The position numbers were made by a program, and so were the translations under genes. From the NCBI GenBank assembly GCA_965655095.1, contig OZ296657.1:84878001-84942000 (forward strand): a DNA stretch of 64,000 nt, in the 5' to 3' direction. Below the pieces are notes generated by a model. It ran no database searches, was not told the origin of the DNA, and worked only from the letters and a program-made list of their open reading frames with translations. The stretch comes from Haplodiscus bocki (taxonomy: Eukaryota). How positions within the stretch are numbered: the first letter of the stretch is position 1; each line of letters begins with the position of its first letter. This document shows positions 9,665-64,000 of the stretch, one piece after another.

Positions 9665-9937
9665 AGCCTGAGGATTCGGAAAAACCTTTGAAGTCACCGA
9701 GAAATCTGCATAAGGTTCGAGATCCGAAAGCAAGATTTTGAAAATTCCGAAAATACTCGGACTAAGCACATATGAAATCCATTATATAATTTTTCGCCAG
9801 AACGTCTAGTTTTTCTCCAAAAACTACGCTCATCCAAGTTCGAGTTAAAGTTGGGCGGAAATTTCTTTTGACAAATGAAGTACTGAAGTAATGTGCAAAA
9901 ATCGCGAATTTTCCGAAAAATGGCTAAAGAACCTATC

Positions 9938-11349: not shown

Positions 11350-11701
11350 GAATTGAGAAATATTTGTAAAATTGTCTCTTCGCGACCGACTCCTTTGTTT
11401 TGCAGATTTTGTTCGGATGAACCTGCTTGCAGTCCTTTTTCTGCTTCCACTACCCATCTGTTTTCGCAGAGTTGGTCTTTCACACTCTTTGCTGCTGTCT
11501 TAAAATTCTAACAACTGCAATTTTGGGCGCAGGAAGTTCCAACAAGTCAGCACTCACACGTTTTGCAGCTTTGACCATGTACTTACGCAAAATTGGAATT
11601 GCGGTCTTCCCAATAGCTTGTGGAAGTGCAGCGAATCCCCTTCCACGCTGTCGACCAATACCTCTATAGAATGGAATTTCTACTGAACTTTAGGCAACCA
11701 T
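11350..11701 (-). pseudogene. Polinton small basic core-protein-like ORF (pVII/PZ-like) upstream of MCP
   Basis: MVA*..PFYRGIGRQRGRGFAAL..IGKTAIPILRKYM; homologous in motif and position to 60647-61240. Confidence 0.65.
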
Positions 11702-11719
11702 CTTGCAGCGTCTTTTTGG

Positions 11720-12480
11720 TAAGAATTGAATTTTGCAGGCTTTTCTAAACATCAAAACAAGACGGGTGTTACCGACAAGTACAGAGGGTTTTTTGTCACC
11801 GGTCGTGTTTCTGAAGTCGAAATGAATACTATGAATAGAAGTTTTGGGCAGCTGTCTGAACTTTAGGTTATTAAATATCTGATATTTAATGTACTACTGT
11901 GTAGTGGTTATCATGTCCCCTGCTTTTAACTTTGAAGTAAAGGAAAAGCAACGCCGTTTTTCTTCCGAGTAGTATCTGAAACTGCTCAATAGAAAGAGAA
12001 CATCCTTTCTTGACGGAAATTGTTCCAATTATGATAAGATGTTTCTTCAGTACACAGCAGCTCTTGAAAGTTACGCTATTGTAAGTTAATGGATATACTC
12101 ATTTTGCCAAGAGCACTTTGTATTCTTTCATTTTCAGATCGTTTTGGTTATCACTGATGTTTAACTTGTTTCAATAACGGTACACCACAACGTTCACCTT
12201 TCCTTTATCAGTCCTGAAGTTTACACATACTTTTCTCCTACCTTGATCTTTTGTGCATTTTAGGCCGGAAATTTTTTTGTGATCAGTTTTTGCATTATCT
12301 GGTAATTGCTAATTGTGACGACAGTCAGTGTAAGTTTTTTCGAGAGAAGTTTTAGAAGTTATTAGTACAATGTTAAAGTCCCATATTTGATTTTAGCTTG
12401 AGAAAGGTGTAACTTATCTCCTTTGTTCCAATTCATCGTAACTCGATTAGGATGAAAAATGATGAAGTAAATAGTTGCAA
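11720..12480 (-). pseudogene. Polinton minor capsid (penton-like) protein remnant
   Basis: C-terminus YQIFNNLKFRQLPKTSIHSIHFDFRNTTGDK...TRLVLMFR aligns by eye with the penton C-terminus at ~60310-60460. Confidence 0.65.
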
Positions 12481-14169: not shown

Positions 14170-14665
14170 ATTCAGAAATTTCACGTCTCAGATTTTGATT
14201 TGAAATTTTTAACCACGTGTCAGATTTTGTATTGGAAATTTGGAATCATGTCAGATTCTGAAGGAAAAATTGGCTGAAATATCACATTTCAACTCATCTT
14301 ACTCCCTAAAACTTCACCTTTTGCATTTTTGGTGCTTTCTTGAAAGGCATCATTTTGATAGCAATTTTTTGAACGTGTCAGAATTTGATTTTGACCCTTT
14401 TAACGTACCAACTTTCGAAATAAAAGTTTTTCGATCTGTCAGACTTTGAATTGATTTCAACGTGCCAGATTGTGAATTAGAAATTCACCATTGTGTCATA
14501 TTTTGTGTTTAAAGTTTTTCAATGTGTCAGATTTTCAATTGACAATTTTTCAACGTGCCAGGGTTTGAAATAAAAATTAACCAATGTGTCAGATTTTGAA
14601 TTGAGTTTTTTTTGAACTTTGAACTTGTCAGATTTCGACAAACGTGTCAGATTTCGAATCAAAAG
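14170..14665 (+). repeat. Internal minisatellite, about 13 degenerate copies of AACGTGTCAGATTTTGAATT with ~30-32 bp period
   Basis: Recurring (C/T)GTGTCAGATTTT core from 14182 to 14660. Confidence 0.85.
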
Positions 14666-15999
14666 TTCTTCATATCTTCTAATGTTAAATTCGAACCTAG
14701 CTTCAGCACTTGTATTTTTCATAATGTTTACCTCTATACCAACATGAACAATTACGGCTTACATCATCTTCGCCACTTATAAATTAGCATTTGCCGTAAG
14801 ACAACAGTTCCTGTACATTTTTCACAGGAATTTTTCAATTTTGATTCTGCTGTGGTATCCCATTTTTTTCTGTGCATGAACTTGTTATTAACAGAAACTA
14901 GCTGCTACTAATAGGATTAATGATGACGAAACTAGAGCTGTTTTTCTCTCACACGTGTCTGACTAGTTACTGAAGGCGACGGAGAAAAAACGAAACACGT
15001 TAATTATTGTTTGCATTGAAATACATACACAGTAATACTTCTTGAAACAAATTTCTGTAGACATAATCGAGAACTTTTCGTGTTTCAAAAGGACAATTTC
15101 TCAGCAAAGCACGGCGTCGAGTTGGTCTGTAAGAAACTGGAATTGTTGCAGGAGGAGAGTTCTCCATGTGTTTCTCTTCAATCGAATCCGGTTTTCATCC
15201 ATTGAGCCTATCTCAAAATCGTTGGAAGTTGAATGGGAAAAGGGAGTGTTAATATGTCTGGTCGAAAGGCTGCATCCATGCTTTAGTCAGGATCCTCCCG
15301 GTGAAACTCAATGTCCTCCACAACGGTGCGCCTACACTTGAGTACTTCATCCCTCATTTCATATGTTCCTTGTTGGTTTGGGTTGATTGTGGTTCGAGCC
15401 AAAGGATTAACCAAAACTTGTCTTCGAACTCATTGTCATTTCATGGACGAGATCATTTACAGCCAGAATAACTGGATCTGGAACAAAGTCGAGAGACCAC
15501 TGGATTCCTTCGTTGGAAACGGAAAAGATCATGCTGCATAACTGTATTGTATTGCATTGAAATTGTATAAAATGGGACTGGAATAAAGTTTTTGAATAAT
15601 TGTTTTAATTAATGGGAGCTCGACACGATTATGCTAAAAATGATTGGTTTTTGCCTGTTTGGACACATGTTCGGATGATGCTGATTGCGACTGGCGGAGA
15701 TACTTTTGTAGCAAGGGGGACGGTTTTTCTGCTGCCTAGTCACCACTCTTTTTGGTAGAACAATGAGTAGCATCTCAACCGAATAAGTTCATGCCGGTTC
15801 TTGTTTTTTTGAGTGGAATAATAAACACATGACAGCTGGCTTTGCTTTTTTTGCAGTGGTAGAAACTAATTGCAGAGTTTTGCTTGGTTAAATTGTAAGC
15901 ACACTGTTTTTTTTTAAAATTCTTGCATTTTACAACTCCGCTAAGAACTTGAATTGACTTTCGCGTCTCAGCAAGAATCTAAACACCTCGGTTACACAT

Positions 16000-17706: not shown

Positions 17707-19240
17707 ATGCCTTCACTCAATCGCTACGAAAAAGTTACTTTCGAAAATTGTGGTGCCCAAACTACCAAGCTTACTCTTGCTCATCACAAGAAAAGTTTTT
17801 CTGCTTTGACTTGGTATTGTACCCAGTGTCCCATTTTCTCCTTAAAATCCCGAAATGTTTTGATTTATCATGATCCTAAGAAGCACAGCGCTCCAAAACC
17901 TGATGCTACCTTCGAAGTGCAAACATTGTTAGAAATACTTTCCCGGGTTTTAGGCTTTACGACAACATAAAAACACTAAACATAGCTTTACTTTTAGGAC
18001 AGCAGTTGTTGATCCTGAGCGTAACACCGACGAAGTTAATTGTACGAATCTTAGAGGAGCTGCGTTCATGTCAGCATTTACTCGGTGTCTCTGACTTTAA
18101 AAGCGCGAGACACAAAGCATTCAGTTATGCTAAAAAATCTCAAGGCAACAATGCTGGAGGAGAAGCTTGATTACTTTTTCAACAACTTAGAATATGCAGC
18201 AAAAGTGAGTATAGCTCTTGGGTTCTTTCTAGAAATATAGGAGTTTGAACATTCAGATGTTTTCACGCACATAACAACAGGACACTGCTGGATCGATCAA
18301 ACTTCTGGGCACCAGGGACGATTTGACAAAGCTGAGGGATCTTGTCAACAGAAGCAACGTCATCGAGTCGTGTAGTAGAGAAAGGATGAACACAAATTGC
18401 AGGTTCTTCAGATAAACTTCACAGTATTTGCTGCTTGATTCAAAGATATACCTATGGGTTGCAACGATGCTGTTTTACCCGAACCTCTACTGAGAAACTG
18501 CGCAATCAGCTGTATCATGTATGAAGAGAATACAAGATAAGCATGTAACGACAACATGTGCCTTTTTAATGAGCTTGCTCTCCATATACATGGAAGTTTA
18601 TACCACTGGAAGAAGAAATTTGAAAAGTTTTGTTCATTTAAAAATACAATGGATGGAATCAGTTCCAGGAGGTCCACACAAACGAGATTCAGGTTGTTGA
18701 GGATCTGCTAACACTCAATCTTCTTTTGTATTATATAAATAATGTGGATGAGAACAGTATCGGAGAACCTCCTAGACGAAGTGTGCAGAAATACGAAAAT
18801 ACTGTGCGACTGCTGAGATACAACAACCATATATTTTATGTGAGCAACTTTAATGCAGTCTTCCAGTTTTCTTGATTTCCTGATTTTGAGAAGTTCTGCA
18901 ACAGAACATTGAATTTGGAGCGACCTTTAGCCGGATGCAGTGAACGAGTCAAGAATGTCCATCCGACCAACTCATATCAAATCCGAGAACTCTTTTTTGA
19001 CAAGCTTGACTCTTTTGGTATTAAGTACACGAATCAACAAAATTTCATCAAAAATTTAGCAAGTTTCGCGTTTGAATCAATTTGTGTCCAGAAGGAGACC
19101 TTCAAGGCTACAAAGACAACGTGGATAGGGAAACATGTCCCGATATATGTATCCAATTCGTCAAAGATTGTGACAGAACCAATTGTTCTTTGCAACTCTG
19201 ATCCTCATCACGTAATTGCATCTTCTATAGGACCACTCGT
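17707..19240 (+). pseudogene. Protein-primed DNA polymerase B, N-terminal part (C2H2 fingers to the Exo I region), truncated
   Basis: YCTQCP...HDPKKH C2H2-like; NDNMCLF..LALH; LLRYNNHIFYV; LASFAFESIC (F-D-F-E-S Exo I-like). Joined at about 19240 to MCP sequence. Confidence 0.65.
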
Positions 19241-19830
19241 ACGACTCTGAAAGACGAATATCACAAAAAACAAAAAAAGAATGGACATGCTTGCACATAC
19301 CCTATTGGAGTTCAACTATTTGGAGACTGTAGCAGACTTTTATCATTCCCGCTACACAAAACCGATTGATTCAAGAAACCATTTTTAACAATGCTCCAGT
19401 TCGTCTGATAGCTCCTGGAACGAATAAAAACATTGAATTCGCTGGATAGTACTCTGAAACTCCATTCTGGAATCAGCAATTCGATCTCAGACAAATCACA
19501 ATACTGTGAGGCGGTCAGCCATTCGTAGACTTTGATGCTGCTAATGTTCGTCGCCCATATGTCACCACAGGGGAAGCAATGGACTTTAAAGTTGATATAG
19601 CCTCAATTCCAATTGACAATTTCAAAGACCACTGTGTACTAGTGTTTGATTTGACTTCAGGGCAAGATGCTACTGAAATTTTTCGCTAACCAGAACTAGT
19701 TGGAGATCCACTGAGACTGGAGCTGAACTCTAGTTTTCCTCTAGAAAAAGTCACTGAACTCATTGTATTGGGAGCACGATTGTCTTCGGTTGCAGTTGAC
19801 AAGTTTGGTGTTGTTGGAAAGATTAAATAA
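19240..19830 (+). pseudogene. Polinton major capsid protein C-terminal part, right-arm copy
   Basis: EFNYLET; FKDHCVLVFDLTSGQD; PELVGDPLRLELN..FPLEKVTELIVLGARLSSVAVDKFGVV. Confidence 0.8.
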
Positions 19831-19831
19831 A

Positions 19832-20223
19832 ATGGATGAGGTTGCTCTCCAGCAGATAATCAAACTTATCGCTACACTCGAGTATCGGTAACTTGGTTCT
19901 GTCATTTCAGATTATATACCAACTCTTCCAATTGAAACTTTTGCCACTAAAACTACGCCACCCAGCCATGTGCAAGGTGAACACTGGATAATGATTGAAA
20001 ACTTCCGTCACAGACTGTGTTTTACAGAATCTATGGCAAGTGAAAAGTACAGTTTCCTCAAGGAACACTACAAGGAGATGAGGCCAGAACCACTACAGTC
20101 CAATCCCATCGAATGAGTTTTCTACACTATATATATGCAGCTTTTCATCTGAAACTCCGACAAGTAGAAATTACTGGAGTTCACAATGTCAATATGTTTT
20201 CATTTATAAGTAACTACATGTAA
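19832..20223 (+). pseudogene. Adenain-like cysteine protease
   Basis: MDEVALQQII..LGSVISDYIPTL..GEHWIMI..PLQS..FYTIY; directly follows MCP, as in element 2. Confidence 0.8.
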
Positions 20224-20475: not shown

Positions 20476-20998
20476 CGGGATTATCCTGCGAAAAACCATG
20501 TTTTGAATCCGGGATTACCCTGCGATAAACCATGTTTTGAATCCGGGATTACCCTGCGAGAAACCATGTCGTAAATCCGGGATTACCATGCGAGAAACCA
20601 TGAAATATAACATACTTCCACGGAGTATACCCTATCTTAAAACTTTGCCGACCTATACCCTATCTTGATACATTACTTACATTACTGAGCTAAACCCTAT
20701 CTTAATACATTTCTGAACTATCTTGATACTTTACCGTCCTATCTTAATACATTGCCAAAATATACCTTATCTTAAAACATTGCCGATTTATAGCCTAGCC
20801 CAATACATTGCAGAAGTATACCCTATCTCAATGCATTACCCAACTACACCCTATCTTATTACCTCACCGAACTATACGCTATCTTAATACATTGCTGTCG
20901 TCGAAAAGTTATCGGCCTCCAATCAGAATCGAGTATTACCACTCGGCAGCCAATCAGAATCGAGCATTACCGTCACTTCTGCTCATTTTTCTACTACT
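20476..20998. repeat. Polinton-1 right terminal inverted repeat with two minisatellites and a CCAAT doublet
   Basis: About 4 x 34-bp CGGGATTACCCTGCGAGAAACCATGTTTTGAATC (20476-20605). About 9 x ~30-bp TATACCCTATCTTAATACATTGCCGA (20625-20895). CCAATCAGAATCGAG twice (about 20918-20968). Confidence 0.9.
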
Positions 20999-22566: not shown

Positions 22567-23085
22567 CTGAAACAAATATTACTTTTTAACATTATCAAAT
22601 ACCACCAATAATATTCTACCGTGGCTTTGTGTTGCCACCAGCTTGTGACCTTACATTTTGCTCTACTCAAGATTGCACTCCATTAGAAATTTTCTTGAGA
22701 AAACATTGAGAAAAACACATTTTCTTTAGTTATTCAATTGAATAACATGTTCCCATTGGAGAAAAGGCAATGTAAAAATTGAAGACTGCAAGATTTATCA
22801 TTCTCTTGCAAGTGCAGGAACAGTTTGGCATAAGTCTAGAAGACTAATTGCACGGATTCTTACAGACAATACATGACTCCATTAAGATTCGATCTCATAA
22901 TCTTTCGGTTAGTCAAACACATTGGCAAATGACCAACGTTCCTCTCAAGCTCTCCAGCAGATTAAATTTTTCAAACAATATTTAGATGGTTCTTCAAAAT
23001 TTTCCGGAGGCTCTCAAAGGTTATTTAGCAAACAATTGCTATATACATGCGATCTTGCTGAAGATATGGAAAAATTGGGACATAC

Positions 23086-23672
23086 TTTTCGATAACCTGT
23101 TTCGTTTCGGGTGTGAACTGAACAAGACATCCTTCTAAACTGGGTAGGAAAATATCATTCACATCAGCTACAACTTGCATTTGTGGTCTTGACTGCGATT
23201 TACTCAAATTGTAGAAGTGAACAACATGTGAATATGTTGCGAAGCCAACTCTGATTGGAGATATTTCTCGATTTTCAGCACCAATCATCTTAGGCAAAAC
23301 TTCAAGGACGTGTTTCAGTTTGTTGCACAGCAAATTAACCATGCCCGATTTGATCGCATTTGCAGACACGTCAATCATAAATATGTAAGCCGGTTCTTTG
23401 GGAAGAGTTTGGTTTTTGCAGTACTCTGTCGGAGCTAGGAACTCATAGGACCCCACACAAAGTTCAGGGCGTTGATATGTATCCATTCTAAGTCCAGTGT
23501 GGTCCAGGTGGCAAAAATACTTCTCGGGGACTTCGTTTACACAACCACACAACAGACATTCAAACTTGCGACCTCCGTCCACAAAAACCATCAGAGGAGA
23601 CATGTAGGCTTTGCAACGGTTGCACCGTATGGGAACTCCAGTAGACGAACAATCGGCAGTCGGAATTGGACT
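23086..23672 (-). CDS. SEC24C: SEC24C/D exon (zinc finger and start of trunk/vWA domain)
   Basis: RCNRCKAYMSP..FVDGGRKFECLLCG zinc finger; RPELCVGSYEF; PAYIFMIDVS; VGFATY...HFYNL. These motifs are diagnostic of the SEC24C/D subfamily. Confidence 0.97.
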
Positions 23673-24194
23673 CTAGAAGCAACGCATGATTTAAAATTTA
23701 CTAGAAATTGTAGAAAAAAACACCCGAAAACACATTCTAGCAAGTGCAAACAAGTGGTTTCGAAAATACTCGATAACTTCCGGATAAAATTCGTAACATA
23801 CGCCATATATCTAAAAATCAAGAACTTTCCAGAATAAACTGATAGTTCTTGAAAGTGATAATTTGGCTAAATTCATCATTTCCTTTCGGAAGCAGCGATT
23901 GATGTAACTACTGAAAAGGCATTAATCGAGCGTTTTGAGTCGCCGCGTTTAATTATACTACAAAGCCTGACTACAGTAGTACTGTTTTATTTATTTTTTC
24001 ATGATGACAGACCTCACTCTGTATACGTTTTTACTAACCTTGCATATTTTTGCCCACTATACCCACATTCATATTTTAATAAGTAGAACAGTTTTACCAA
24101 CTTCAAAAAGTTTATACAAAAATTGAAAATTTATGCACAGACATACCCAACTATCAAAACATTTGTCATATGATTTCTTCAAAAATTCAAGCAA

Positions 24195-24415
24195 GAGCCA
24201 ATTCCAAAAACTTTTGTGATACCCCCCATTTGAGTACCAAGAGGAAACCATAGTTTTTTGAAAAACTTCGGGCCTCCTGTCCAAATTTTTCGATTATAGG
24301 CATTGCGTACAGCAATTCTTTCCGAAAAATTGAAAGTTTTCCAACATCAAAGCATCCCGTCCTATGAGTACTTTGAGCCTTGCGGGCGGCGTCGACTTGG
24401 CCGTTCTCGAACAAG
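24195..24415 (+). repeat. Dispersed repeat family, copy 1 (copy 2 at 28396-28600)
   Basis: GAGCCAATTCCAAAA...GAAAGTTTTCCA.CATCAAA...GTCCT.TGA.TA.TTTGAGCCTT..GGGCGGC is shared by both copies; GC-rich hairpin at the 3' end. Confidence 0.65.
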
Positions 24416-24561
24416 AACTAAATTTTAGTTGAAATAGTTTTAATCTTAATACAAGAGCACAAAGCTTAGCAACTCAACGGAAGATCTAGTTAATCAAAAT
24501 TTCTGGGTTGCCAAAAATAACTCAACAATTAGGCTGCAGATTATACATGGAAGCAACTCAC

Positions 24562-24810
24562 TTCCATACTGTCCAATTGGGCGTAGGGTTGCAAAGCCAT
24601 ACAAATTGGAAGCCGCGAACTGTTGCACATGTCTTTGGTAACGGGGAAACTGTACACAGTGGATCTCAGGAATTGGGGTCGACAATTTCCCTGATCAACA
24701 GACACGAACATGGTTGTGCAGAGAGGAGGGGCTCCCGCTGGCTGCATCCTGTTCCCAGTCTGGAACGGCTCGTCTCCTCTGTTCTTCTGATCTTCCAAAA
24801 GCACTGTGAT
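24562..24810 (-). CDS. SEC24C: SEC24C/D exon
   Basis: ITVLLEDQ...PPLCTT..DQGNCRPQFLRSTVY..P (Sec24 DQGN.SPR.RST motif); GT-AG, 83 codons. Confidence 0.93.
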
Positions 24811-25492
24811 CTATAACACAAAGTGAATAACCACCTGCTCATGTTTTAACAAAACCGTCTCATTGTCCTAGCTTAACTATTTTTTGTATGAAGAAGCGCC
24901 TCTAATTAATTTTGATTTTAGATCAAGGCTACATGACAGTCAGTACAAGTGAATTTCAATTCTTTCACTTAAACAGCTGTTTCATTCCATTTTAAAATAT
25001 AGCCTCCCAATGCACAGAGGACTTCGGACTTTTTTGGTTTGATCGCTCTGATCGCTCCTATGATGGTCCATATGGTCCCTCCTGTACTCCCACACAGCTT
25101 TACTGCATTTGGAAAAAATTGAAATTTTTCAGATGTCGCACGAAATTCCTTATTTTGGACGAGGTCGCACAATGTCGTACGAAAAAGCGTCAAAAAACAA
25201 AAACCGACTAATACTATTAGTACGTCGTAAAACTAAATTTTTCGCCACGTCCTAAAAAGCCCCAATTACATAACAATTCAAATTTAATATCGCACATCAA
25301 ATCTTCGACCAAGATAGCAGCAAGCAATAATGACCCATTTTGAGTGAAATAAAACGCAATCGCGAACTAGAAATGGTTCTTTATTTCCTGGTTCTTTAAG
25401 CAACACATTTGAACCAAATCATTTTAGTTTTCCTTCGGCAATTCGGTGTTTCATTCTAAAGTTTGTGAAAAAAGGTGACCCATTTTACTAAC

Positions 25493-25629
25493 AGGACTGG
25501 GCATCAAATCAGGATCCAATCTGTTCCTTGACTGCTGAGGAGGTCCCGGAGGAGAGCGGGGAGGATGGCCACCCATAGAGTCACTCGGTCCCATTGGTGG
25601 TGGAGGTCCAGCCGGCGGGGGTCCCATGT
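25493..25629 (-). CDS. SEC24C: SEC24C/D exon
   Basis: ttccag acceptor; ends RLDPDLMPSP (cf. the conserved LDPD.PSP motif of SEC24C/D); GTTAGT donor. Confidence 0.85.
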
Positions 25630-26163
25630 CTGGAAACACAAACTCTCAACTTATCACAACTTGCGAACAACAATGATATCCATTTCTATAAATCGCATCA
25701 AGTTTACTTTCCGTTATTGAGTGAATAAGAATTACAACCAAAATTCTGATGCAAAAATCAATCAATGAGCTGAATGTTCTTAGACCTTTTTAGGCGATTC
25801 AAGATGTTGCGGCCAATCAAAGCTTAAGTACGAATATGAGTAGAAATGGACAGCATTGATTAAGGTCTATCAATTTGAAGAGTCTCATTTTTCAACCCGA
25901 TTACCCAGAAGGAAGTTGAAACCGAGCCGAAATTCAGTGACAAGATTTCACCTCAGCCAGGAAAAGACAACACTTGAGAAGCAGAACAAAACAAAATGAA
26001 GCCCAAAGGAAATAAAATCTGGGGCTAAAAAAGAAATAATTATCTCCAAAATTCAAACAATCAACTCACTGCACGCAACCAAGCCATCAGCGATCACTGT
26101 TAAGGGAAACAATTATTGCCATGAAATCAAATGAAAGAATTTTCAAATTTAGGAGATACAAAC

Positions 26164-26340
26164 TTGTCTGAGGAAGGGTGGGTGGCTGAGGAGGAAAATT
26201 GGGATTCATTGGCCCACTCGTTGGAGGCATCGGTGGAAATCCAACAGGTGGTCTCACGTTTCCAGGGTTCATATTGTTGGGTGGAAGGGGAGCTCTGTAT
26301 GGCTGTGAGCCAGGGTATCCGGGCATCGGAGGTCCAGGAG
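26164..26340 (-). CDS. SEC24C: SEC24C/D exon (Pro-rich)
   Basis: tattttag acceptor, A|GTTTGT donor, phase 1-1, PGPPMPGYPG...PPTLPQT. Confidence 0.8.
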
Positions 26341-26568
26341 CTAAAATAGAAGTCAAAAACTTTTATTTGCAACTCTATGTATTTGACTTCTCGTTCTTTC
26401 TACTCAACTAAAAGAAAAAACTACGCCTTTTAAAGACTAAATTATCCAAAAATTATATTCAGCATTTGATTACTATGTCGGCTTGTACTGAAATTATTTT
26501 AAAGTCGTATTTTTTGAAAACAAAGTAGTCTGATGAACCCAATACAGCATCAAAAATTTCAAACTTAC

Positions 26569-27382
26569 TGTATTGTGGTGATTGAAAATGATGGGGTGGT
26601 CGATTATTCGGTGAAACTTGTTGCATATTTGCTTGATAGGATACATGACTCGAGGTCGGTGGTTGCTGAGGGGGAGCTCCACTATTCGGGGCAGCGGGGA
26701 GACTCTGTTGTACAGGCAATCCAGCGGAAGGAATCTGGTTCATTTGGTTTTGGGGAGCGCCTGGTGGCATAGGGGGACCCGGAGGAGACACCATCCCCTG
26801 TTGGGGATAAGTGGGTGTTTCTGAGGTCGGAGGGAATGACTGAGGAGGATATTGATTAAAGTTTTGCTGTTCTGGCGGATTTGGGTAACACTGGTACTGT
26901 TGCTGTGGGTGATGGTTGTTGCTCTGCGCAACCGGTGTAGGGGTTGACTGCTGAATGTTGTAATTAGGACGGGAAGTTGAATTTGGATGCACACCATTCA
27001 CAATCGACGTCTGTTCTGACTCGGCTGAATTTTTGTTTTCGTTACTTGAACTGTTCACATTCTCTGATTTTGAAACTTGATGGCCGGCACTGCTCAAATC
27101 ATTCGCATGATGCCCATTTGCTAAGCCTCCATGGCTTGATCCAACCTGAGGAAAATTGTTCGGCCCTGATTGATGACTGGAGTTCAAGGTAGGTCCAGTA
27201 GGGGTAGCAATTGTGTCAGGAGGAGGCCGCGCCATTTGCTGTTGTTGCCATTGAATAGCACTCGGATGCGCTGGAAAAGATGGATGTTTGCCCGGTGCCA
27301 TCTGATATTCATATGGCTGTTGCATGGCAGGGTTTTTATTCACTTGGAACGGAGGCGCAAACTGAGACGGATGAGCCGGCAT
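26569..27382 (-). CDS. SEC24C: SEC24C/D exon (first identified coding exon; Pro/Gln-rich N-terminus)
   Basis: Pro/Gln-rich ORF MPAHPSQF...SPQY. Acceptor tttttcag at 27398-27399 lies just upstream of the ATG at 27382; donor A|GTAAGT at 26568. An upstream exon may exist. Confidence 0.8.
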
Positions 27383-28059
27383 TCCTCTACCTGGGCCCTG
27401 AAAAAAGCAACAGCAATGTTTTACTGAAGGTCCCCTGGGCCTTTTATTAGCAAGGATGACCAATTATTCATGGCAATGAATTGTTGCGAAAACTTTGAAC
27501 CGATCAATTTCTGCAATTACTGGAAGCCTGAAAACCATCATTTTGCGCTCCAAAATTGATATTAATTGAACGTCAGCAATCAAGAGGCCTACATCAACCC
27601 CAAAATCTGAAATAATTGTTATAAGGTTTCAGAATTTACAAAGCCACTCCTCAACTTGGCGTTTTTTGATGAAAATACAACAAATTTTCCCCGAATTTAT
27701 TTCAGGGACATGATATGATAATAGGCCTTTGGCGGGGCTCGAACATCGAAGCGAAAGAGTTTGAAAGGTTCGCCGAATTAACATCTTTGAAGTTCTAAAC
27801 AATCAAACGAAGAAAAAACAATGAATTAAACTATTTTAAAACTTGATTCGGGTCAAATTTGTTATTTTGCAAAAAAAATTGAACAACGGATATTCGAAAA
27901 CGAAAAAAGTGCATAAATTTTCCACGAGGGCTGTGTACATAAAGATGCCAGGCTGTTTAGACGCAGGTGAAAAATAAATGGAGTAGTCAATATGATCTAT
28001 ATAGGAAGATCATCAAATATGGCAAGAAAAGAAACTTTACCAATTTTACAAATTTGGAA

Positions 28060-36249: not shown

Positions 36250-38975
36250 ATCAGCTCAATCAACAAAACAGACATTACTTTCCTAACGATAAATCATCGC
36301 TGATTTATCACTGCTCCTCGAACTGAAGCAAAACGAAATACTCCTCAACAGTAGCACAACTTTTATAACTGGAGACTTGAACAAGAAATCAACAAACTGG
36401 GAAACAATGTCCTCCAGAGGCACGAACGAAGACTCACTGCTCACTGATCTACTTGACTCAGGTTTTCACGAATTCCTGCATCATGGTGAAGAAAAGCAGC
36501 TCGACGTGCTGCTGACAAACAACCGACATTGTTATTAAGGCCAATCCTGACATGAGTGTTTTCAAGAAAAACTCAATTGACGAAAAACCCTGCTCCAATC
36601 ATCTGCCTCAGCGAACCCTACTAAACCTGACACAAGAGAGATGGCAATCACACACAAACCTGAAAGCATACGGGCTCCGGAAGGCCGACTGGGGAGTGGT
36701 TGTAGAGGCAATTCAAAACCATCCCTTCAACCCATATTGCTACAGTAATACAAACGTACTGCTCGAATTATGGTACTCTTGGATACGGAAAATAATGGAG
36801 GATACCTTGCCAAAAGTCACAAAACATCGCTCTGAACTACCTCCTTGGGTGACTAGCCCGACTTCACACAAGATGAAAAAGCTAGAAACGTTGAAGAGGA
36901 AAAGGAAAACGGGAGTACCAAACGTCAAGCTGGAGCTTAAAATAAAACGATTGTCAAAAGAAATCCATAGTGATGTCGAAACCGACCTGACACAATTTGA
37001 GGAAGATGTTTTCCGCACTCGAGAGTTCAGCAAAATACAGAAATATCTTGTATGTGTTAGAAAGAAACCTGTGATACCCAGCATTGTGAAGCGACAAGGA
37101 ACTCTAGCAACTGACAAAAAACAAAGTGAGGACTTTTTCAACGAATTCTTCTGCAGTGTTTTCCACAAAGACACTCCAAACATCGTGAAGCCATACTATC
37201 CAAATAGACAAGTAAATACAGTCCACATCTCAGAAGGACGTGTCACCGAGCTTCTAGAAACGCTACAGGTTGGAAAAGCAACAGGACCAGATAGGATTGG
37301 AAACTTCTTCCTGCAGAATACAGCAACATCTCTTGCAAAGTCTGTGGCACTCTTATACCGCACGATGGTCAATAAAAGAATCTTTCCGGCTTCTAGGAAA
37401 GTCAGTCAAATCAGCCCCATCCACAAAGATGGGGAAAAGGACTTTGTTGAGCACTATAGACCTATCAGCTTGTTGTGTTGTGTGTCCAAGGTCTTTGAAC
37501 GTATAATCTTCGAAACACTTTACGAAAATCTTCGCCACAAGCTACACCCAGCACAATACGGTTTCCGTCAAAAACGATCTGCCACCCTACAACTTCTGAC
37601 CTTTCTCCACAAAATCTACACCAACTATGATGACGAAGCAGTGAAAGAACTGGGGTAATCTATCTCGATTTTGCAAAAGCATTCGACACAGTTCAACATG
37701 ACATACTGATCACAAAATTACAAGAAGTAGGTATTGGAGGCAAACTCCTACAACTACTTGCATCATACCTAAATCAACGAAAACAATTCGTCAAAGTTGG
37801 TGAAGAATCTTCTGGGCTGAAGGAAGTAACGAGTGGAGTACCCCAGGGTTGAATTCTTGGTCCTTTGTTATTTTTAGTTTTCATTAACGACCTGCGGAAC
37901 AGCATGCAGAACTGTTACGGTTTTGCCGATGACTTTAAAAATCTTGTGAAAAGCCAACAAGAACTCAACGGAAGCACTGCCGCAATTGACTACTGGTGCG
38001 CAACGAACGGAATGCAACTAAATGTGAATAAATGTGGCATACTCGTACTCAGTGGGCAAATGAATGGCAAACTCAGCAACGAGAACATTGCTTCTCTCGA
38101 GACTCAGAAGGACCTAAGTTTGGTAATAACGAAAAGTCTAACTTGGCATAACAACTGTCAACAATGAACAAACAAAGCTCTAAAGGCACTTTTTAGTCTT
38201 AAAAGAAACCTGTCCAGTAACTGCTCTATAAATGTCAAAATCAATGCCTTCACAGGGTACGTGATGCCAATACTCACGTATTGCGCCCAGTCCTGGCTCC
38301 CAAACAACTCCTGTCTTAGAGATATGGAAAGAGTACAGAAGATTGCCACCAAATGGTTTTACGGTAGCCATATAGAATACTGCGAACGACTACTTAAATG
38401 CAACCTACTGCCAGTATCAATGTACCATGAATTGCATGACATCCTTTATCTCGACTCACTGCTGAAAGGAAAATACGACATAGACATCAACAAATTCCTA
38501 TCGAAAACATCAGTTGAATCAACCAGACAAAGTTCGCGGAGTGAACTGGAAGTTACTCGAACCAGGACACAGAAAGCTGATGAGAACTTTTTCATTCGAT
38601 CGAGCATCCTTCACAACATCATGTCACGGGCACTTGCGGGAATGTCGCTAAAGTTTAACAAAAGCAACCTGACTTATTTGTACTGGAACTACTTCACGAC
38701 TAGATACAGCGAAACCAACCCTTGCACATGGAGAATTATCTGTAAATGCAACCATTGCAACCCCACTGGTAAACTCAGCCTTATCGGGACGATACAATGA
38801 AGGGATTCAATTGCCCCAGAGGACCAAACCTCTGAAGCCTCAACTACTACTACTACTAATTGAAACAAAGAAACTGAAAAAACTCGAACTACTGCTGCAT
38901 TAGTTAAAGAACATACATACGAACGGGTTCTTACCCAACCCCTGGACATTTGTCCTAAATCCTTTTATTATTATA
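36250..38975 (+). mobile_element. 5'-truncated L2/CR1-group LINE, relatively young (APE C-terminus, RT, 3' UTR)
   Basis: ITGDLN; KATGPDRI; YRPISLLCCVSKVFERII; QYGFR; IYLDFAKAFDTV; SGVPQG*ILGPLLFLVFINDL; FADD; C-terminal CTW..CKCNHC; (TTA)n tail. One frameshift at about 37655 and stops at about 37850 and 38165. Confidence 0.93.
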
Positions 38976-55362: not shown

Positions 55363-56430
55363 AAAAGACGGGCGATTGTACGTAGCTGAGCTCAGCCGGA
55401 CATTGGCTGTTGATTTGGGGGTAACAAATGCTCAATGCACGTGCTTCGATTGTATGACTCAACCGCTTCAAATCATCGGTTCGACGGCTCAAGAAGGCAA
55501 CAACTAGGCTTCGCAGCTTTTTTTGTTTATGATGAGAACACATTTATTGATGCAGCATTTTTGTAAAAGTTTTGTTATGAGCCAGACGTTTCTTTTAATT
55601 CAAACTTGCCTACTTAAATGTTTTCTTCGAAAGGCATTTGCGAAAACTTTGTGAAAGTAACATACTGGATCTCAAAAAAGACAACATCTAAAAACTCTTT
55701 TCATGCAGTTTGTCTCTACTTAGAGAAAACAATAAACTTAAATGAAGTTACATCAAGGGCATCTTTTGGTGGCAATGTTGGAGCAGGCGACAGCCTTCTA
55801 CACACCAACTTGAAGTTTTCAAAAGTTTTACTAATGCATGCAATCTTTCACAATGCCTATGGTTATATGAGGAGTGTCAAAAATGTGGGACCTGGTTATG
55901 CTTAAACCTTAACTACTGAAAAATGGTCCAAAAACTGCATGCTTTTGGGTCATTTTTCAGGAAATTTATTTCGGACGTTTATGAAATTTTGGAAGATTTA
56001 TTATTACGACAACTTTCCGTTCTAACCATTTCGATTCAACCCAACTGGAAAACGGTTGGGTTTGTCCAGCACCGGCAAAGTTTCCAGCGAACAATTTGCT
56101 TGCCATGCAAGGCGTTGAATCGAAACGTTCCATTGGTTATTACAGTGAATTTTGTGTAGATCAAGAACAACAGGTGGTGGATGAAGCTGACTTCGCAAAC
56201 ATTTGTCAATGTAACAACGATCGCCTTGTTTTTGATGAATACAATCAGCAACGAGCACCATTTTGTGTAAATTTTTGCGGCGGTGACAATTTAGAGCTCG
56301 ATCGGTCTTTACTTGTAGTATTAAATAATCACCTAGTTATTTTGAATCTTGTCATTTTTTGTGTAACCTTCCTCACATTCTGCGAAGCGGACAGTAGATT
56401 CGCATCAGGGATGCTAGCCTTCTTGTTAGC

Positions 56431-57133: not shown

Positions 57134-57454
57134 GCTTACGAAATTTTTATGCAGTAGGTTTTTAAATCCAATTTCCTCTCACACTGAAAAGATGTTTCAA
57201 TGTGAACTGCTCTGATGAAGTAATTAAACTATTTTGCTACTGCATCTTTCACGTGATGGAAAGAAATGTCAAACTAGAGAAAAAATTGCAAGCGAAAATA
57301 TCAACACTTTCACGAGAAAAGAGCACTATAGCGACTCTCTGTTCAAAGAAAAACATTTCGCTCAAACGTAAGCGTCAGCTGCTGGCTTCTCCTAGAGGTT
57401 TACATTTATTGTAATTCATTGTTCCCTCGGTGCTAGGTCATTTAAAGTCTTACC

Positions 57455-57958
57455 ATGACATCAAACGGTAGCCTTAAAGAATTTATTCTAACAACTAACG
57501 AAGAATACTGTTTTCTCAAAAATCAACCACAACACGGAAACAAACGTGTGGATTCTTGCCAAAAACAGAAGCAGCAAATCCTCGCTTATGTACCAGCATC
57601 AATTTTTTTAAACAGCGAAAGTGAAGGGACCACGAATCCGTCTATCGACAAGAAACAAGCGTTGATTGCTCAAATCATTTTGAACTCAAGGTTTCAGGAT
57701 CAGAAGAAGCCAAGTAAAGAAACATCGACGTCACAAGCAAATACTGGCTACCAACAGAACAATACACCAGACAAAGTTATGGCCGACCTACTTCAATCGG
57801 GAAAACCTGGAGGAAAAATTGAACGGTCAAGACAATTCTTGAAGGCCATCCAAAAAAGCAACCGCGTCACCGTTGACGAGATGAATCAAAACGCTTTCCT
57901 CGTTGAACAGGATACATCAATAGATATAACTGACTTCCTAACTGCTCTCCAAGTTTAA
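57455..57958 (+). CDS. Polinton accessory ORF between ATPase and integrase (167 aa)
   Basis: ATG-initiated open frame; position typical of conserved Maverick ORFs of unknown function. Confidence 0.4.
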   Translation: MTSNGSLKEFILTTNEEYCFLKNQPQHGNKRVDSCQKQKQQILAYVPASIFLNSESEGTTNPSIDKKQALIAQIILNSRFQDQKKPSKETSTSQANTGYQQNNTPDKVMADLLQSGKPGGKIERSRQFLKAIQKSNRVTVDEMNQNAFLVEQDTSIDITDFLTALQV

Positions 57959-58159
57959 ACTGAACAGCTGCCCAAATGATTTCCAATTTGGTTGAGATAG
58001 TTGCTCAGCCACAAACTCTGCTGGCAAACACATACGATAGACAGACGAGTTCTAGAATTCAAAACCGGAGAGCGTACGGAGAATCCCCAAGCAGACGTCT
58101 CAAACTCGACACTGAAGCCCCCAGTAGTTGGCTGTTTCTCTGAATTTACTGTTCGACAA

Positions 58160-59331
58160 ATGATGCCAAAGAAATGGTTCTGCAGCTGCTGCCAAAAGCG
58201 GTTGGATAAGGGATCAAAACAAAACCCTCTGGTGTGGTGCCATGTGTGTGAATGGGTTCACTTCGCGTATTCAGGGTTGGAAAACAAAACTGATTATTTT
58301 GACAATTTTCTATGTTCAAAATGTTCAAGAAGTCGAGTTATGATTGAAGATGACGATCCGTTCGCAGTTGTATATACCAAGATTCACGGTGCCTATACAA
58401 ACCCAGAAAAAGTAACTGCATTTTGTAGTCCATTAATTTTTGCCAGGGCAACGAACTGCTTGCTCAAACATGTTAATCGCTACTTGAACTCGAGTGAAAC
58501 TTACAGCGTTTAAACTTAACCGAAAACGTTTTTCGAGACTTAAAGTTATCAGTTATCGACTGAATGAGGTTTGGTCTATCGACTTGGCTGGTATGCAGCA
58601 ACTTTCCAGCGAAAATTTGGGAGTTAGGTATGTTTGTGGTGGTCGACACTTTGAGTTGCTTTCTATGGGTCGTGGGCGTGAAGTCCAAGACATCTAAAGC
58701 TTGTTTAGAAGCGCTGAAAAATATATATATCGTCTAAAAACAAACTAACAAATATAAGCAACGAAATGCACCAAAAATTTGTGCAATCAGAAAGTTTCCC
58801 GAAAAGATATGGGCTGATCAAGGTAGAGAGTTTCTGGGTGAGTTAGCAAAGTTTTGCACAAAGAATGGTATAGAAATTTAGTCTACGAGAAGCGAGACAA
58901 AGTCAGCTGTGGCTCAGAGACATATAAAAACCTAAAAAACTATCATTTTCAATTACTTACATGAGCGTGACACAAATCGATTCATTGACTAACTTGAAAA
59001 ATTTGTCTCAATCATTAACAATAGAATCGATCGTATGACTAAGTTGGCTCCAATCGAAGCGTCCTAAAAAGTCGTTTCATACTTAATCTCTCTTTGCAAT
59101 ACTGTGACAACACAACGACCAGAGCTCAAAGTCGGCGACCGAGTTCGCATTTGAGAGAAAATTGGAACATTTCATCGTGGTTACAGGATACAGTTCATTG
59201 AAGAACTTTTTACACTTTTACACATACCTACAAAGAATCCGCTGACGTACGTTGTGAAGGACGTGAACGACGAAATCATACAGGGTGAATTTTATGAACC
59301 TGAACTTGTGAAAGTTGTCACAGCAAATTAA
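58160..59331 (+). pseudogene. Retroviral-like (rve) Maverick integrase with an N-terminal PHD finger
   Basis: CSCC...WCHVCEWVHFAY...FLCSKC in frame with YTNPE..AF...YLNSSETY; then NEVWSIDLAGM, IWADQGREF, TKSAVAQR, VGDRVRI, TYVVKD..EIIQGEFYEPELVKV; several stops and frameshifts. Confidence 0.88.
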
Positions 59332-59421
59332 ACGAGAACATAAGAGCGCAGGTGTCTGAAATAACCAAACCGCGTACCATCAACAATCTGTCAAAACCAG
59401 ACACTTTCATTTCTTCAAGAC

Positions 59422-60468
59422 ATGACTGCTTCTGAGAGTGCTGAATTCACGCTAAACTTAACTTGCAACGCGTCCATGGAAACATTTCCAGGAAACAAAT
59501 TGTCAATTTTCACAACACTTCTACCCACGCCTGTGACTCTCTCCGGGGAATGGCAGGTAGTTTTGCTGGAGATATCTTGGCCGGCAAGGGTTCGCAAAAC
59601 AACTGAAGGCCAAATCACCGTTTCGAAAGTTGTACCGCGCCCAAAGTCACCGCCGCCACAACAATCACCGAGCTAAACTATCCCAAGCAGAGTACCAGGG
59701 GTTGTGTCAATTAGAGTGCCGCAGCAGTTTAGAGAAGTCAAACCAGCATTCACGTTCACTAGTCCAGAAGTACGCTAAATTAAGCCAAGTTGCTATTCAT
59801 CCATTGATGATATCATGGAGGCAACAGTCAGAAGTGCTACTAGAAACGACAATGAAAAACTTCTCCCGCCAACAACTCAGCACCCTAAAGTTGCAACATG
59901 CCGTTCAACAAATTCTTCGTGGAAAGTTGACAAGGCGACGCAAGACCTTCACGTTAGGTTCTGGGGAAACATGGAGCAAAACGGTTTGGTTATCCGAAAG
60001 AAATCACAGGATTTGAAGAACATTTTGGGCTTGACAACAGTCATAGACTGCCAACACGGCGAGCACAAACAGGAATCAAAAAAGAACTTTGATGGCAACT
60101 GCCAAGACGATCAGCAAAATCAAAGAGATATCGTAATTGTACAGAACTCAAGTCAATGGCCGGTTGACTTGAAACCCGGAAGTCACACAATGTTTTTGTA
60201 TTGCGACTTGGTAGAAAATGACATCTTTGGTGACACACAAACTGTGTGGTTGCGTTCCATTCCCCTTGAAAGCTTGTCATTGACGGGCAACCGACAAAGG
60301 AAAGAAGTGAACCACAGGAGTTTTTCAAACTTGCAGTGGAAGCGAATATACAAAACACAATTTCATCCAACCACTCTGACTCTGGCCAATAAAATGGGTC
60401 AAAGAATGCCCTTTTTGAGCTGCGGCCGCACAAGCATTACTTTGGCACTCAGGACCAAGCCATGTTGA
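59422..60468 (+). pseudogene. Minor capsid (penton-like) protein
   Basis: FTLNLTCNASMETFPGNKLSIFTTLLP..LSGEWQVVLLEISWP...MFLYCDLVENDIFGD...LRSI; two in-frame TAA stops. Confidence 0.85.
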
Positions 60469-60646
60469 CGAGAACGATTGACTGAGAGACAACTAAGCAG
60501 AAGAAGGTTAATTAATCTTCTTCTCTCTAGTCGACGCCATTTGACAATCAGTCGCGGAACCAAACAATTGTTCCAAGCGTTTAGTTATCACTATCATAAA
60601 TCAGTCGCGTGTATGTATATCAAATTAGGTGATCACACAGAAAAAG

Positions 60647-61240
60647 ATGGATGCTCAATATGATTCCTAAAAACCAAGTAATCACAATCATCTTCGTGCT
60701 ACTCACCCAAACGCCTCTTTTAGCGGTCGAGTGCGGCAAATGGGAGCGGGTGCTGGTGGCTTGGGAGCGTTTGCCGTGCGAATGGGAAGAGTGTTAATTC
60801 CAGTTGTGCGGAGGTACATTCTGCCGGTAGTTAAACACTTCGGAAGAATTTTGTTGGAAGCGGCAATGCCTGAAAATGGTCAGGTTTTGGCCGGCAAGAA
60901 GAGACCCAGTGGCATGATGTTAAAACATGTTGCGGACACTGCTACCGAAAAAACTGTAAATACCTCGGCGCTGAGATTTTCAGACCGCTCGGCCGGGGCG
61001 AGCGTTGCACCGCAGCGGGCGGCGCGTTCCCAAAGCGGACGGGTGCCAGGCGGCCGGATAGCGCGCGAGCGGGTGGCCGGAGCAGACTGACCGCGGACCG
61101 GCAGTACAAATCGAAAGCGACAGAAGCTTTCAGCAGCATCAGTGCCCGAATCAACAACGACACAAATCATTTCCAAATCAAGTCCTGCCAAGAGAAGTTC
61201 GTCAGATATTCTGTTTGAAATTCAGTTTGCCCGACAGTAA
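60647..61240 (+). pseudogene. Basic core-protein-like ORF (pVII/PZ-like)
   Basis: MDAQY..FSGRVRQMGAGAGGLGAFA..GRVLIPVVRRY, with an Arg/Ala-rich GC-rich tail. Confidence 0.65.
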
Positions 61241-61323
61241 AACCACAACGACAACAGAGAAAAAGTGCAAAGAAACTGGCCCTACCAACAGCAACAACAA
61301 CAACGACCTTTTTTGGTAGTGCG

Positions 61324-62624
61324 ATGGAAATTGCGAGCCCGGACATTCACAGCGCTCTAGATTTTTTTGAGAAGCCCAACGCGTCAATCAATTACGAAAG
61401 TTCATACGATCAACAGGTTTTCCCACATGTAGGATATCGAGGCCGCCAGTTGAACTTGTTGTAAAGCTGAAGCAAAAAACTTGATTGACTTGAATCGTAT
61501 TCTGTTGAGTGTAAAAATGGGCGTCTACATGGAGGACGGAAAGGCCCGCGCCAAAGTCATTGAGCATCCAATAATTTTTTCGAACAACATGCTTCAGACA
61601 TTGTTTTCTCTCGCTTAATTGTATTTGAAGGGTAAACTCATTTCACACAGCAAAAACTGTTCTTTTCATGCTGCGTTCATCGAACCCGAACTTACAGCTC
61701 ACACCGACAGAAAGCAAACTTGGACAAAGTGTCAGGGATATGATTACTTGGCAAAAACGAGTCAGCAAAATCAAGAGTTCAATAAATTTTACGCTGATTT
61801 TGACCGCCAAAAACAATGCACGACCGAACATTACATATTGACTTCTTTGGCTGCCAGAAATTTCTGGTGTCCGGCGTCACGCTTCATTTACAACTTTTCC
61901 GTTTTCCCAATAACAAGATGCTTTTTATGAAGGGAACCGATGACGAAGCTAAGGCGCTTGATGGTAAAGTGCAAGCAACTTTTGCGAAAACTTCTCTTTT
62001 TGTGAGGAAAGTAGTGGTTACGGACAGGGTGGAATTGTCAAATGAGAAAACTCTCATAAACAGTTCGGCTTTTTACCCCTACATTGAAAATCTGAACAAA
62101 ATTTTTATCATACAAGCAGGTTAAAACAGTTTTGTGAAAGGAAACGTGTTTGAAACGGAACCAATCAGACGGCTAACTTTGTGTATTGTCAAAAAATTAC
62201 TCTTTCCAAGTAGAGCTTTAAACTCTTCGCATTTTTCATACAAAAATTCGACTTACAGCAAGTGGAAAGCCAGCGCGGGAGCGGGGTGCCCTTGGCTGGG
62301 ACACCAATAGACACAAGCAACAACGTTAGGCTCTGATACAATACATTTACGGCTCTTGGGTTCAGCAAAAATGGGAAGGGACTAAAATTGGAAGATTTCG
62401 AGGACAATCAGTTTTTCCTCGTTTTGGATCCAACATCAACGGAAGAGGCTAGGAGAAGCTTAACCTTGTTTCCCCAAATCACTGGATTGAGTCTAACCTT
62501 GAAATTATATTTCTCTACTGCTCTTGATGATGCAAATGAATTTTTTCTAATTGGCGAGATGTCCAGTCATGTGTTCATCGATTCTGCTCGAAATATCTCC
62601 AAGAATACATTAATCGACGGATAA
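61324..62624 (+). pseudogene. Major capsid protein (double jelly-roll)
   Basis: HSALDFFEKP; LIDLNRI; LHIDFFGCQKFLVSGVTLHLQL; FIIQAG; FFLVLDPTSTEE..LFP...LTLKLYFS..FIDSAR. Confidence 0.87.
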
Positions 62625-63180
62625 GTTCACAATTGGAAAAATTGCAACAAAGTGTTTTAGTACATTCCACATTTTTGGTGGCTTTTGGTCGTCGGACAAT
62701 TTCCCTAAACGCAAGATGACTGCGTGGAAAAACAAAAAAAGAGCAGCGCCAACAAAAATAAAAAGGAACCAAGCTCGAAAATTTCACAACTGAGAAAATT
62801 TCAAACAAAAAACTCTTCGCCGTCAAATAAAAGCAGTGAGCATTGGATTATACTGTGTGCAATCTACAATGGTGATCAAGTTGGAGTTTTTGTTTGGGAT
62901 TGCCTCGGCAGGCCTCTATGCTAATACGATCAATTCTACAGCAGACCTTGGAAGTAATACGGAAACTGTGGAGGTTTCCCAGCGATCAACATACCTTTGC
63001 CAAAGCTTCATTCTAACCTGTGTGGTCTGTACTGCTTGTATCTAGCACACTGTTCGGTCAGGAAACACTTCAACGAGTACAAACTGCAAAAAAACGCCAC
63101 TTCAATTGAAACCACCGAAATTCATATAGTACGCTTCTTTAAAGAATATGTTAAATGTAGTCAAGTTAATCATAGAAGCT
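62617..63180 (+). pseudogene. Adenain-like cysteine protease
   Basis: FGGFWSSDNFP; SEHWII; VWDCLGRP; SNLCGLYCLY (His/Asp/Cys triad motifs). Confidence 0.85.
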
Positions 63181-63764
63181 GATAATATTGTCGATTTGTA
63201 ATGAATTTATTGTTTAAGGCAAGACTGTGTTGCGAAGACGTTGAAAGTTTACTAGTTTTTAGGCCACAGTTTCATCTGTGTCAGCGCCTTCGCTAAAGCA
63301 GGCTCGCTTCCTGGTTCTCTTGAAAGCTGGCACATCTGCTGGGTCTTCCTCTTTGGCTTCCCAGTCAATGAAGGGACATTTTGGGCCTGGACTAGAAGAG
63401 TCATCATTACCGTCAGCCATTGAAGATAGTTGATCCCAGTCAACAAAGTCGGATAGTTCGCTATCCGATATAGGAGGCTGGTTGAGGAGGAAGATGCTAA
63501 AAAAGAGAGCGTTGATTTTAACAAATGGATAAGACAGAACCACGCAAACATTTACCATACGTAATTAAAGACCAATGAAAATGTTACTGCTGTAGAGGTT
63601 GGACTTTACGCAATGAAAATTCTTGCTTTTCCCACAAATCACAAGAAGAAGGTAATGTTTTGAGCATATCATGCAAAAAACCAGGAGGTTTCGTTGTCTT
63701 GCTGTAATTCGACGACTCAGAGTCGAGATCAGTAGTGGAACTACTGGTGAAAGTTCGAGTCAAT

Positions 63765-64000
63765 TTAGACTGACGAAAAATCGTAACCATTTGAGTTCTC
63801 TAAACAGAAGAAGAAGTGTGAAGAAATTCGGAAAGACTGTGGTTGGAGAAACCAAAAAACTGCAAATTTTTTGAAACAGCGACCTGTTTGTCGGTTTGTA
63901 GTGTCACTGAATGTACTTCCATATTTGTAGTGTCCATAAGCAAATGAAGAAAAACCATTATCCAGAAGGAAGCGTTTGTCGTCAAATGAGCTCACTGTGA
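63765..64000 (-). pseudogene. pPolB C-terminus
   Basis: SLSSFDDKRFLLDNGFSSFAYGHYK matches the LS.FDDKR...AYGHY C-terminal motif of Polinton pPolBs. Confidence 0.8.

Follow-up and report, generated by a model that had tools for sequence, protein, structure and literature searches.

A Maverick integrase family with an N-terminal finger of predicted PHD fold and no C-terminal chromodomain

The integrase gene and its relatives

We analyzed a 64,000-nt stretch of the Haplodiscus bocki genome (contig OZ296657.1 of assembly GCA_965655095.1, positions 84,878,001 to 84,942,000; hereafter the window), in which a decayed Maverick (Polinton) module contains an integrase gene at 58160..59331 on the forward strand. 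The gene begins with a C4HC3 finger of predicted PHD fold, runs into the Maverick-type N-terminal domain and the catalytic core, and ends without a chromodomain. Its parts, and the spacer behind it, are as follows:

58160..58513, forward strand: 117-aa 5' piece of the integrase, with the PHD-like finger and the helical N-terminal domain; its frame breaks off near 58505
58181..58324, forward strand: C4HC3 finger of predicted PHD fold with Cys4-x3-His5 spacing (sixth ligand lost in the window copy)
58340..58501, forward strand: Maverick integrase N-terminal domain, three-helix, helix-turn-helix (HTH)-like
58503..58634, forward strand: second-frame segment from the middle of the integrase, carrying the WSIDLA motif of the first catalytic Asp
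58630..59331, forward strand: third-frame segment with the remainder of the rve core and the C-terminal domain, six in-frame stops and no chromodomain
59332..59421, no strand: 90-bp spacer from the integrase stop to the minor capsid start

From the ATG at 58160, 16 nt behind the stop of the upstream gene's frame (58141-58143), a 117-aa frame (stop 58511-58513) runs unbroken from the finger into the integrase N-terminal helices. The finger reads C-x2-C-x15-C-x2-C-x3-H-x2-(Tyr)-x14-C-x2-C with seven of the eight ligands, and its motif, searched with a pattern composed after inspecting the sequence, occurred once in the six frames of the window and in none of 60 shuffles of two-letter blocks. The gene closes with a TAA at 59329-59331, five residues past GEFYEPEL, and the minor-capsid ATG follows at 59422. 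These positions confirmed the initial annotation, which had described a C4HC3-like finger with a Tyr in one frame with the integrase N-terminus and a stop just past GEFYEPEL, 90 bp before the minor capsid (penton) start. The window copy is a dead Maverick (Polinton) integrase: frame changes near 58505 and 58630, placed by comparison with uninterrupted relatives, and six in-frame stops within 58624-59328 break it, so that the finger and the catalytic core do not lie in a single frame here, as they do in other copies. PF00665 (rve) scored E 1e-4 in the broken window piece and was above cut-off in relatives. Contigs of two public runs matched 57925-58336 with one letter differing in ~411, indicating that the finger sequence is not an assembly error; both runs come from one study and may themselves be the source of the window. 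A sequencing error behind the Tyr at the sixth ligand or behind the x3 spacing was ruled out; the x3 spacing is common to the family. At a likeness of at least 80%, 57400-60500 was matched by 562 and 594 contigs in the two runs, most of them below 95%, and by this measure the Maverick family of the window is large and mostly old.

With the 5' piece as query, searches retrieved 10 out of 24 and 21 out of 21 candidates, all of them ENA proteins with 54-82% identity, and with the C-terminal piece 38 of 486. A profile of the finger plus N-terminus, run against 1.84 billion cluster representatives, gave 873 matches, and by hand count 34 of the best 150 spanned both the finger and the helical domain. 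All eight ligands were complete in 45 of the 259 proteins examined, many of the 45 being near-duplicates and hence not independent, and 12 proteins were unbroken from the finger to the last integrase motif. Eleven of these end 6-12 residues past that motif; the twelfth, P0229, reads on, apparently into the capsid gene out of frame. The D, D, E motifs were intact in all eight uninterrupted proteins inspected. One cluster holds 24 proteins, and the 94-99% identity among six of its full-length members indicates a young subfamily. In the relatives, the finger, the HTH-like domain, the DDE core and a short C-terminal domain are a single protein without a chromodomain. The finger-integrase fusion is a feature of the family, and a separate open reading frame (ORF) or a one-off insertion was ruled out as the source of the finger by the relatives that have finger and integrase in one frame.

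The early end of the protein likewise extends beyond the window. Among 36 new proteins from the C-terminal-piece search, 23 reach the terminal motif and 20 end at most 15 residues later; in the other three, a tail of 22-43 residues extends into the spacer, and the read-through tail of P0035 matches the window's 59332..59421 spacer. Contigs of other copies span the stop-to-capsid spacer with few gaps. Pfam Chromo was above cut-off in five outgroup integrases used as controls (P0151, P0183, P0185, P0189 and P0210) and in none of the full-length members of the family (for two of them, among the best five Pfam families), which, with the short tails of 11 of the 12 uninterrupted relatives, upholds the proposed lack of a C-terminal chromodomain.

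Fold and origin of the finger

The C4HC3 ligand order is present in the 45 proteins with all eight ligands. Cys4 and His5 are three residues apart (x3) in 43 of them, one residue short of the PHDs in PDB alignments, and four apart (x4) only in two, L001 and P0137. The gathering score of PF00628 (24 bits) was not reached, the best value being 21.7 (P0137) and that of window-type fingers at most 18.6. A confident structure model of the finger returned only PHD-containing structures from Foldseek, all of them weak, with the PHD-containing chromatin-binding region of Hop1 in the top row. On this model, the finger is predicted to adopt a cross-brace, two-zinc PHD fold. The PHD assignment of the initial annotation is supported by the predicted fold and the C4HC3 order; the score below the Pfam cut-off and the x3 spacing depart from a typical PHD. 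RING, FYVE and C1 readings, suggested by scattered weak Pfam matches, were set aside; none was among the listed fold rows, an absence that does not by itself exclude them. A profile of the finger found no second finger in the window, including a decayed LINE (long interspersed nuclear element) at 36516-38800; the same profile also missed the x4 finger of L001.

The two x4 fingers belong to other metagenomes. P0137, from a Joint Genome Institute (JGI) metagenome, combines GDVETNPGP with a PHD of normal spacing (Pfam E 2e-4), followed by a linker and a related integrase. On the 6.9-kb contig L001, an uninterrupted module shares the gene order of the window; its 409-aa integrase opens with a PHD of normal spacing and terminates six residues past the last motif. 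The L001 finger is closest to Pygopus PHDs (E 1.8e-5), is 30-38% identical to the window-type finger, and was aligned with the family profile by hhalign at a probability of 60 (E 9e-5). Both x4 fingers, at L001 2421-2600 and in P0137, close with a C-x-C ligand pair in place of C-x2-C. Judging from these sequences, a second lineage carries a Pygopus-like PHD on the same integrase. Two more contigs, L002 and L003, have the gene order of the window and no finger; L002, whose end is complete, also has no chromodomain. No relative was found in the first metagenome scan, nor in viral contigs scanned with P0001, P0245, the L001 integrase and profile A5.

In 16 finger-bearing proteins from nine clusters, an NPGP-type peptide follows a leucine-rich stretch and precedes Cys1 by a few residues. 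Six clusters (P0236/P0245, P0102, P0126, P0135, P0137 and P0149) fit the expanded 2A core (D/G/C/N)(V/I)ExNPGP (bioRxiv 10.64898/2026.09.24.754024); the 2A-like peptide is missing in the subfamily of the window and in L001. In LINEs, 2A-like peptides are described 40-80 residues into ORF2, some followed by a PHD and many inactive (Odon et al. 2013, PMC3708506), and the Pygopus entries 2vpb and 3zpv are the top matches of most LINE PHDs (Metcalfe and Casane 2014, PMC4120745, Table 1). The NPGP peptide before the finger and the known 2A+PHD cassette of CR1/L2-type LINEs together indicate that the finger was likely captured from a LINE, arriving as the 5' cassette of a CR1/L2-type element. Like the cassette of CR1/L2/Crack LINEs, subfamilies that keep the 2A-like peptide have a short leader, G-x-(V/I)-E-x-NPGP and, a few residues on, a Pygopus-like PHD (PMC3708506, PMC4120745); here, however, the cassette precedes the DDE integrase of a DNA element instead of an APE endonuclease and a reverse transcriptase, and the x3 spacing of the window-type finger differs from the PHDs of the LINE cassettes. 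No donor LINE was found, and the LINE at 36516-38800 of the window has no PHD or NPGP in or before it. One 126-aa protein, P0192, has an x3 finger of the GWVHxxCSGL type whose loop is shorter, and low-complexity sequence but no integrase comes after it; the protein is possibly a retrotransposon N-terminus and, as such, a lead to the donor.

To order the loss of the chromodomain and the gain of the finger, we used a 31-row tree built from the integrase with finger and chromodomain excluded (midpoint root, chromodomain-bearing integrases as the outgroup). It was derived from a quick tree by dropping 25 of 55 rows (fragments, degenerate copies, long branches and one duplicate) and adding P0137; its labels were assigned by pattern, and several of the rows labeled 'noPHD' inside the family represent truncated gene calls. 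Twenty rows without a chromodomain formed a 100/100 group, in which early branches with complete ends (P0112, P0125 and L002) have neither finger nor chromodomain. The finger-bearing families all fell within a 95/90 subgroup, alongside P0186 and P0194, in which no finger was seen, and a constraint uniting the finger-bearing rows was not rejected (approximately unbiased test, p 0.37). Two outgroup rows, P0181 and L009, also end early without a chromodomain. The rows lacking both domains were basal in the 55-row quick tree and in the 31-row tree; P0159 moved. Because such relatives branch earlier, the chromodomain was apparently lost before the finger was gained, and we infer a loss followed by one or two gains, as separate events. 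The swap of chromatin readers that had been suggested at first is not supported, the chromodomain being already gone in the earlier, finger-less P0112, P0125 and L002.

Possible roles of the finger

Several positions of the 43 x3 fingers point to the histone pocket. The Trp two residues before His5, which divides the pocket and is required to read methyl-K4 (PMC5415848, PMC3851687), is kept in 42 of 43. An aromatic residue precedes Cys3 in 41 of 43, and a Trp or Tyr stands two residues before Cys1 in 26 of 43; in our own alignment mapping, the former would match F765 of fly Pygo, the floor of the methylated-R2 groove. With the PHDs of Pygopus, TAF3, PHF23, BPTF and KDM7, which read methylated lysine 4 of histone H3 (H3K4me), the finger shares the predicted fold, the C4HC3 ligands and the Trp two before His5, but it is one residue shorter between Cys4 and His5, has a basic loop 1 and has a Phe where the PHD signature Trp precedes Cys7. 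On these grounds we tentatively propose, at close to an even chance, that the finger tethers the integrase to host chromatin through methylated H3K4. The lineage would first have lost its chromodomain, as the tree suggests; a LINE 5' cassette of short leader, 2A-like peptide and PHD would then have been joined in frame to the integrase start, with the leader and 2A later lost in some branches, the window's included, and the finger retained by selection. The finger would bind the H3 tail via the conserved pocket-divider Trp, with its basic residues touching nucleosomal DNA, and this binding would bias insertion towards H3K4-methylated chromatin. Four features weigh against such a tether: the acid after Cys3 that contacts H3R2 (E767 in fly Pygo) is present in 0 of 43 fingers, the mean net charge is +4.4, a strand of the finger is shortened, and there is no cage Met.

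The positive charge, the basic 15-residue loop and the missing acid would also suit a PHD-fold finger that binds DNA rather than histone. Together with the HTH-like domain, which it abuts, such a finger could grip the element ends or target or nucleosomal DNA, by analogy with piggyBac. Cross-brace fingers that bind DNA are described in the piggyBac cysteine-rich domain (CRD), BRPF PHD2 and PHF6 (PMC5861402), and the weak top Foldseek match to Hop1 points the same way. The pocket-divider Trp and two neighboring aromatic positions are nevertheless kept, and the finger-less L002 and others have uninterrupted integrases, so that ends could be bound without a finger. PHF23, which is an H3K4me3 reader, is likewise lysine-rich in the aligned stretch. 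We regard DNA binding as a serious but unlikely alternative.

The finger could instead serve folding, multimerization or the binding of a non-histone host protein, replacing the HHCC zinc domain that Maverick integrases lack; Polinton integrases are described without an N-terminal zinc finger (PMC2836005). The chromodomain-bearing integrase frames L005 16-1479 and L018 291-1700 start with a different four-Cys, zinc-ribbon-like module, an observation by which N-terminal zinc additions to Maverick-type integrases recur, and the odd spacing with the invariant W-C/G-W-V-H surface could form a protein interface. This is improbable in our judgment, because most relatives function without any finger and the conserved surface maps to the histone pocket of Pygo-type PHDs. 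More doubtful still is a finger without a role, the 5' end of a LINE having landed in frame at the integrase start: the 2A+PHD cassette does resemble LINE debris, the leader and 2A are gone from some branches and P0186/P0194 may have lost the finger, but between families that share only ~50% identity the finger is conserved to the same degree as the catalytic core, and all eight ligands are kept in the young 94-99% identical copies and in L001. We hold a mere passenger to be very improbable.

Taken further, the proposed H3K4 tether would make this a capsid-encoding element that took up a whole LINE cassette, whose x3 PHD with a Pygo-like aromatic R2 groove would read H3K4 (perhaps R2) methylation and direct insertion into active chromatin, and whose 2A, where kept, would trim and meter the integrase by ribosome skipping. 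Such a histone-mark-guided, StopGo-controlled integrase in a double-stranded DNA virus lineage is conceivable from the sequences but, as a whole, unlikely.

The decayed module and comparison with known systems

The integrase lies in a module with the order ATPase, two small genes, integrase, minor capsid, core-like gene, major capsid and protease, with a probable polymerase end on the other strand. Maverick membership follows from the packaging ATPase, protease and major and minor capsid genes that adjoin the integrase, the ATPase being recognized by Pfam and the others by synteny and tblastn with L001:

56437..57070, forward strand: packaging ATPase gene, broken (Pox_A32 E 9e-5; L001 homologue E 4e-35, itself Pox_A32 E 1e-9)
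57455..58143, forward strand: broken gene directly upstream of the integrase, function unassigned (position as the 202-aa L001 gene)
59422..60468, forward strand: minor capsid (penton) gene, broken (tblastn with the syntenic L001 gene, E 7e-38)
60647..60901, forward strand: small basic core-like gene, broken (tblastn with the syntenic L001 gene, E 2e-10)
61309..62624, forward strand: major capsid gene, broken (tblastn with the 467-aa L001 gene, E 1e-64)
62578..63182, forward strand: Ulp1/adenain-like protease gene, broken (tblastn with the L001 gene, E 1e-8)
63765..64000, reverse strand: probable C-terminus of a protein-primed DNA polymerase, cut by the window edge (matches the end of the 1317-aa ORF of L017 weakly, E 4e-4)

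The upstream gene 57455..58143 had no tblastn match to the 202-aa L001 gene, and the capsid genes had no Pfam match. We take 59422..60468 to be the putative penton from its position and a motif, 61309..62624 to be the putative major capsid from size, position and motifs, and 60647..60901 to be presumably core-like. The protease gene of L001 has a weak Peptidase_C48 match (E 0.014). The candidate polymerase end comprises only ~77 codons at the window edge, without a Pfam or PDB match, and its DDKR...YGHY is presumably a polymerase motif. The 1317-aa ORF of L017 (2415-6365), beside an integrase, is probably a polymerase and has an internal endonuclease VII match (E 3e-5). At 55618-55989 (forward strand) of the window, a gene matches an L003 ORF (E 4e-15); its H-x3-H-(D/N)...GPGY pattern, without a Pfam match, is presumably that of the PLA2-like accessory gene of adintoviruses.

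Elsewhere in the window, two more decayed Maverick capsid/protease stretches lie at 8812-11875 (reverse strand) and 19300-20080 (forward strand). The segments 8869-9657 and 18912-19707 form an inverted pair (97-99%), and part of 8359-9318 recurs 1.3 kb downstream. At 20476-20900 and 14210-14672 lie short tandem arrays (28, 34 and 31 nt); those of 28/34 nt, perhaps element ends, have counterparts in inverted orientation at 8680-8870 and 9987-10177. In the LINE at 36516-38800 (forward strand), part of a reverse transcriptase is preserved (RVT_1 E 9e-6). A Sec24-type host gene has exons within 23025-27463 (reverse strand; Sec23/24 zinc finger and trunk, Pro/Gln-rich exon 26459-27463, Sec24 exon 23025-23672). 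The Sec24 exon marks the host as a eukaryote, and the capsid-bearing type of the element suggests an animal. The stretch 1525-1932 (reverse strand), with GPSG and PGVRP motifs and no Pfam match, we take to be a CRE-type retrotransposon reverse transcriptase fragment.

The initial annotation knew of no earlier description of this architecture for Polintons, and it is apparently an undescribed variant of Maverick integrase: no report of a PHD-integrase was found in the main texts of the Maverick/Polinton literature searched (supplements, founding papers and Repbase entries were not covered). 'PHD' occurs nowhere in the main texts of PMC8502044, PMC11161782, PMC8097293, bioRxiv 2023.08.22.554363 and PMC3671162, and neither Polinton nor Maverick in PMC12338488 on 2A peptides. 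The find is less surprising than at first sight, since mobile elements of many kinds have acquired PHD fingers, among them Chlamys, CR1 and Rehavkus elements (PMC8557442); the rve and PHD combination also occurs in an Atlas cluster. It would document a domain that moved out of a LINE retrotransposon into a virus-like DNA element and left the 2A peptide as its fingerprint; the altered spacing also makes the finger a naturally occurring PHD variant. A steering role of the chromodomain in Maverick integration is no more than presumed (PMC8502044). Within the clade, three natural types of integrase can be compared, those bearing a chromodomain, those bearing a PHD and those bearing neither reader, and several of them apparently share assemblies; insertion-site maps of the three types can show whether reader domains steer Mavericks.

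With the chromodomain-bearing integrases of Mavericks/Polintons (adintoviruses; Starrett et al. 2021, PMC8502044), the family shares the rve DDE core, the helical N-terminal domain, the GxFYxxEL end and the gene neighborhood ATPase - integrase - minor capsid - core - major capsid - protease; it differs in having no chromodomain, an N-terminal PHD-fold finger and, in some subfamilies, a 2A-like leader. Ginger1 transposases (Bao et al. 2010, PMC2836005) also fuse a PHD to an integrase-like enzyme, with a chromatin role that is likewise only proposed, but their PHD lies behind Ulp1 at the C-terminus, the element is a cut-and-paste transposon without a capsid module, and 1 of 16 listed families carries the PHD. 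The piggyBac transposase similarly bears a cross-brace zinc finger on a DDE enzyme, one that was first taken for a PHD/RING; its CRD, in contrast, has a C5HC2 ligand order, lies at the C-terminus and has been shown to bind terminal-repeat DNA (PMC5861402).
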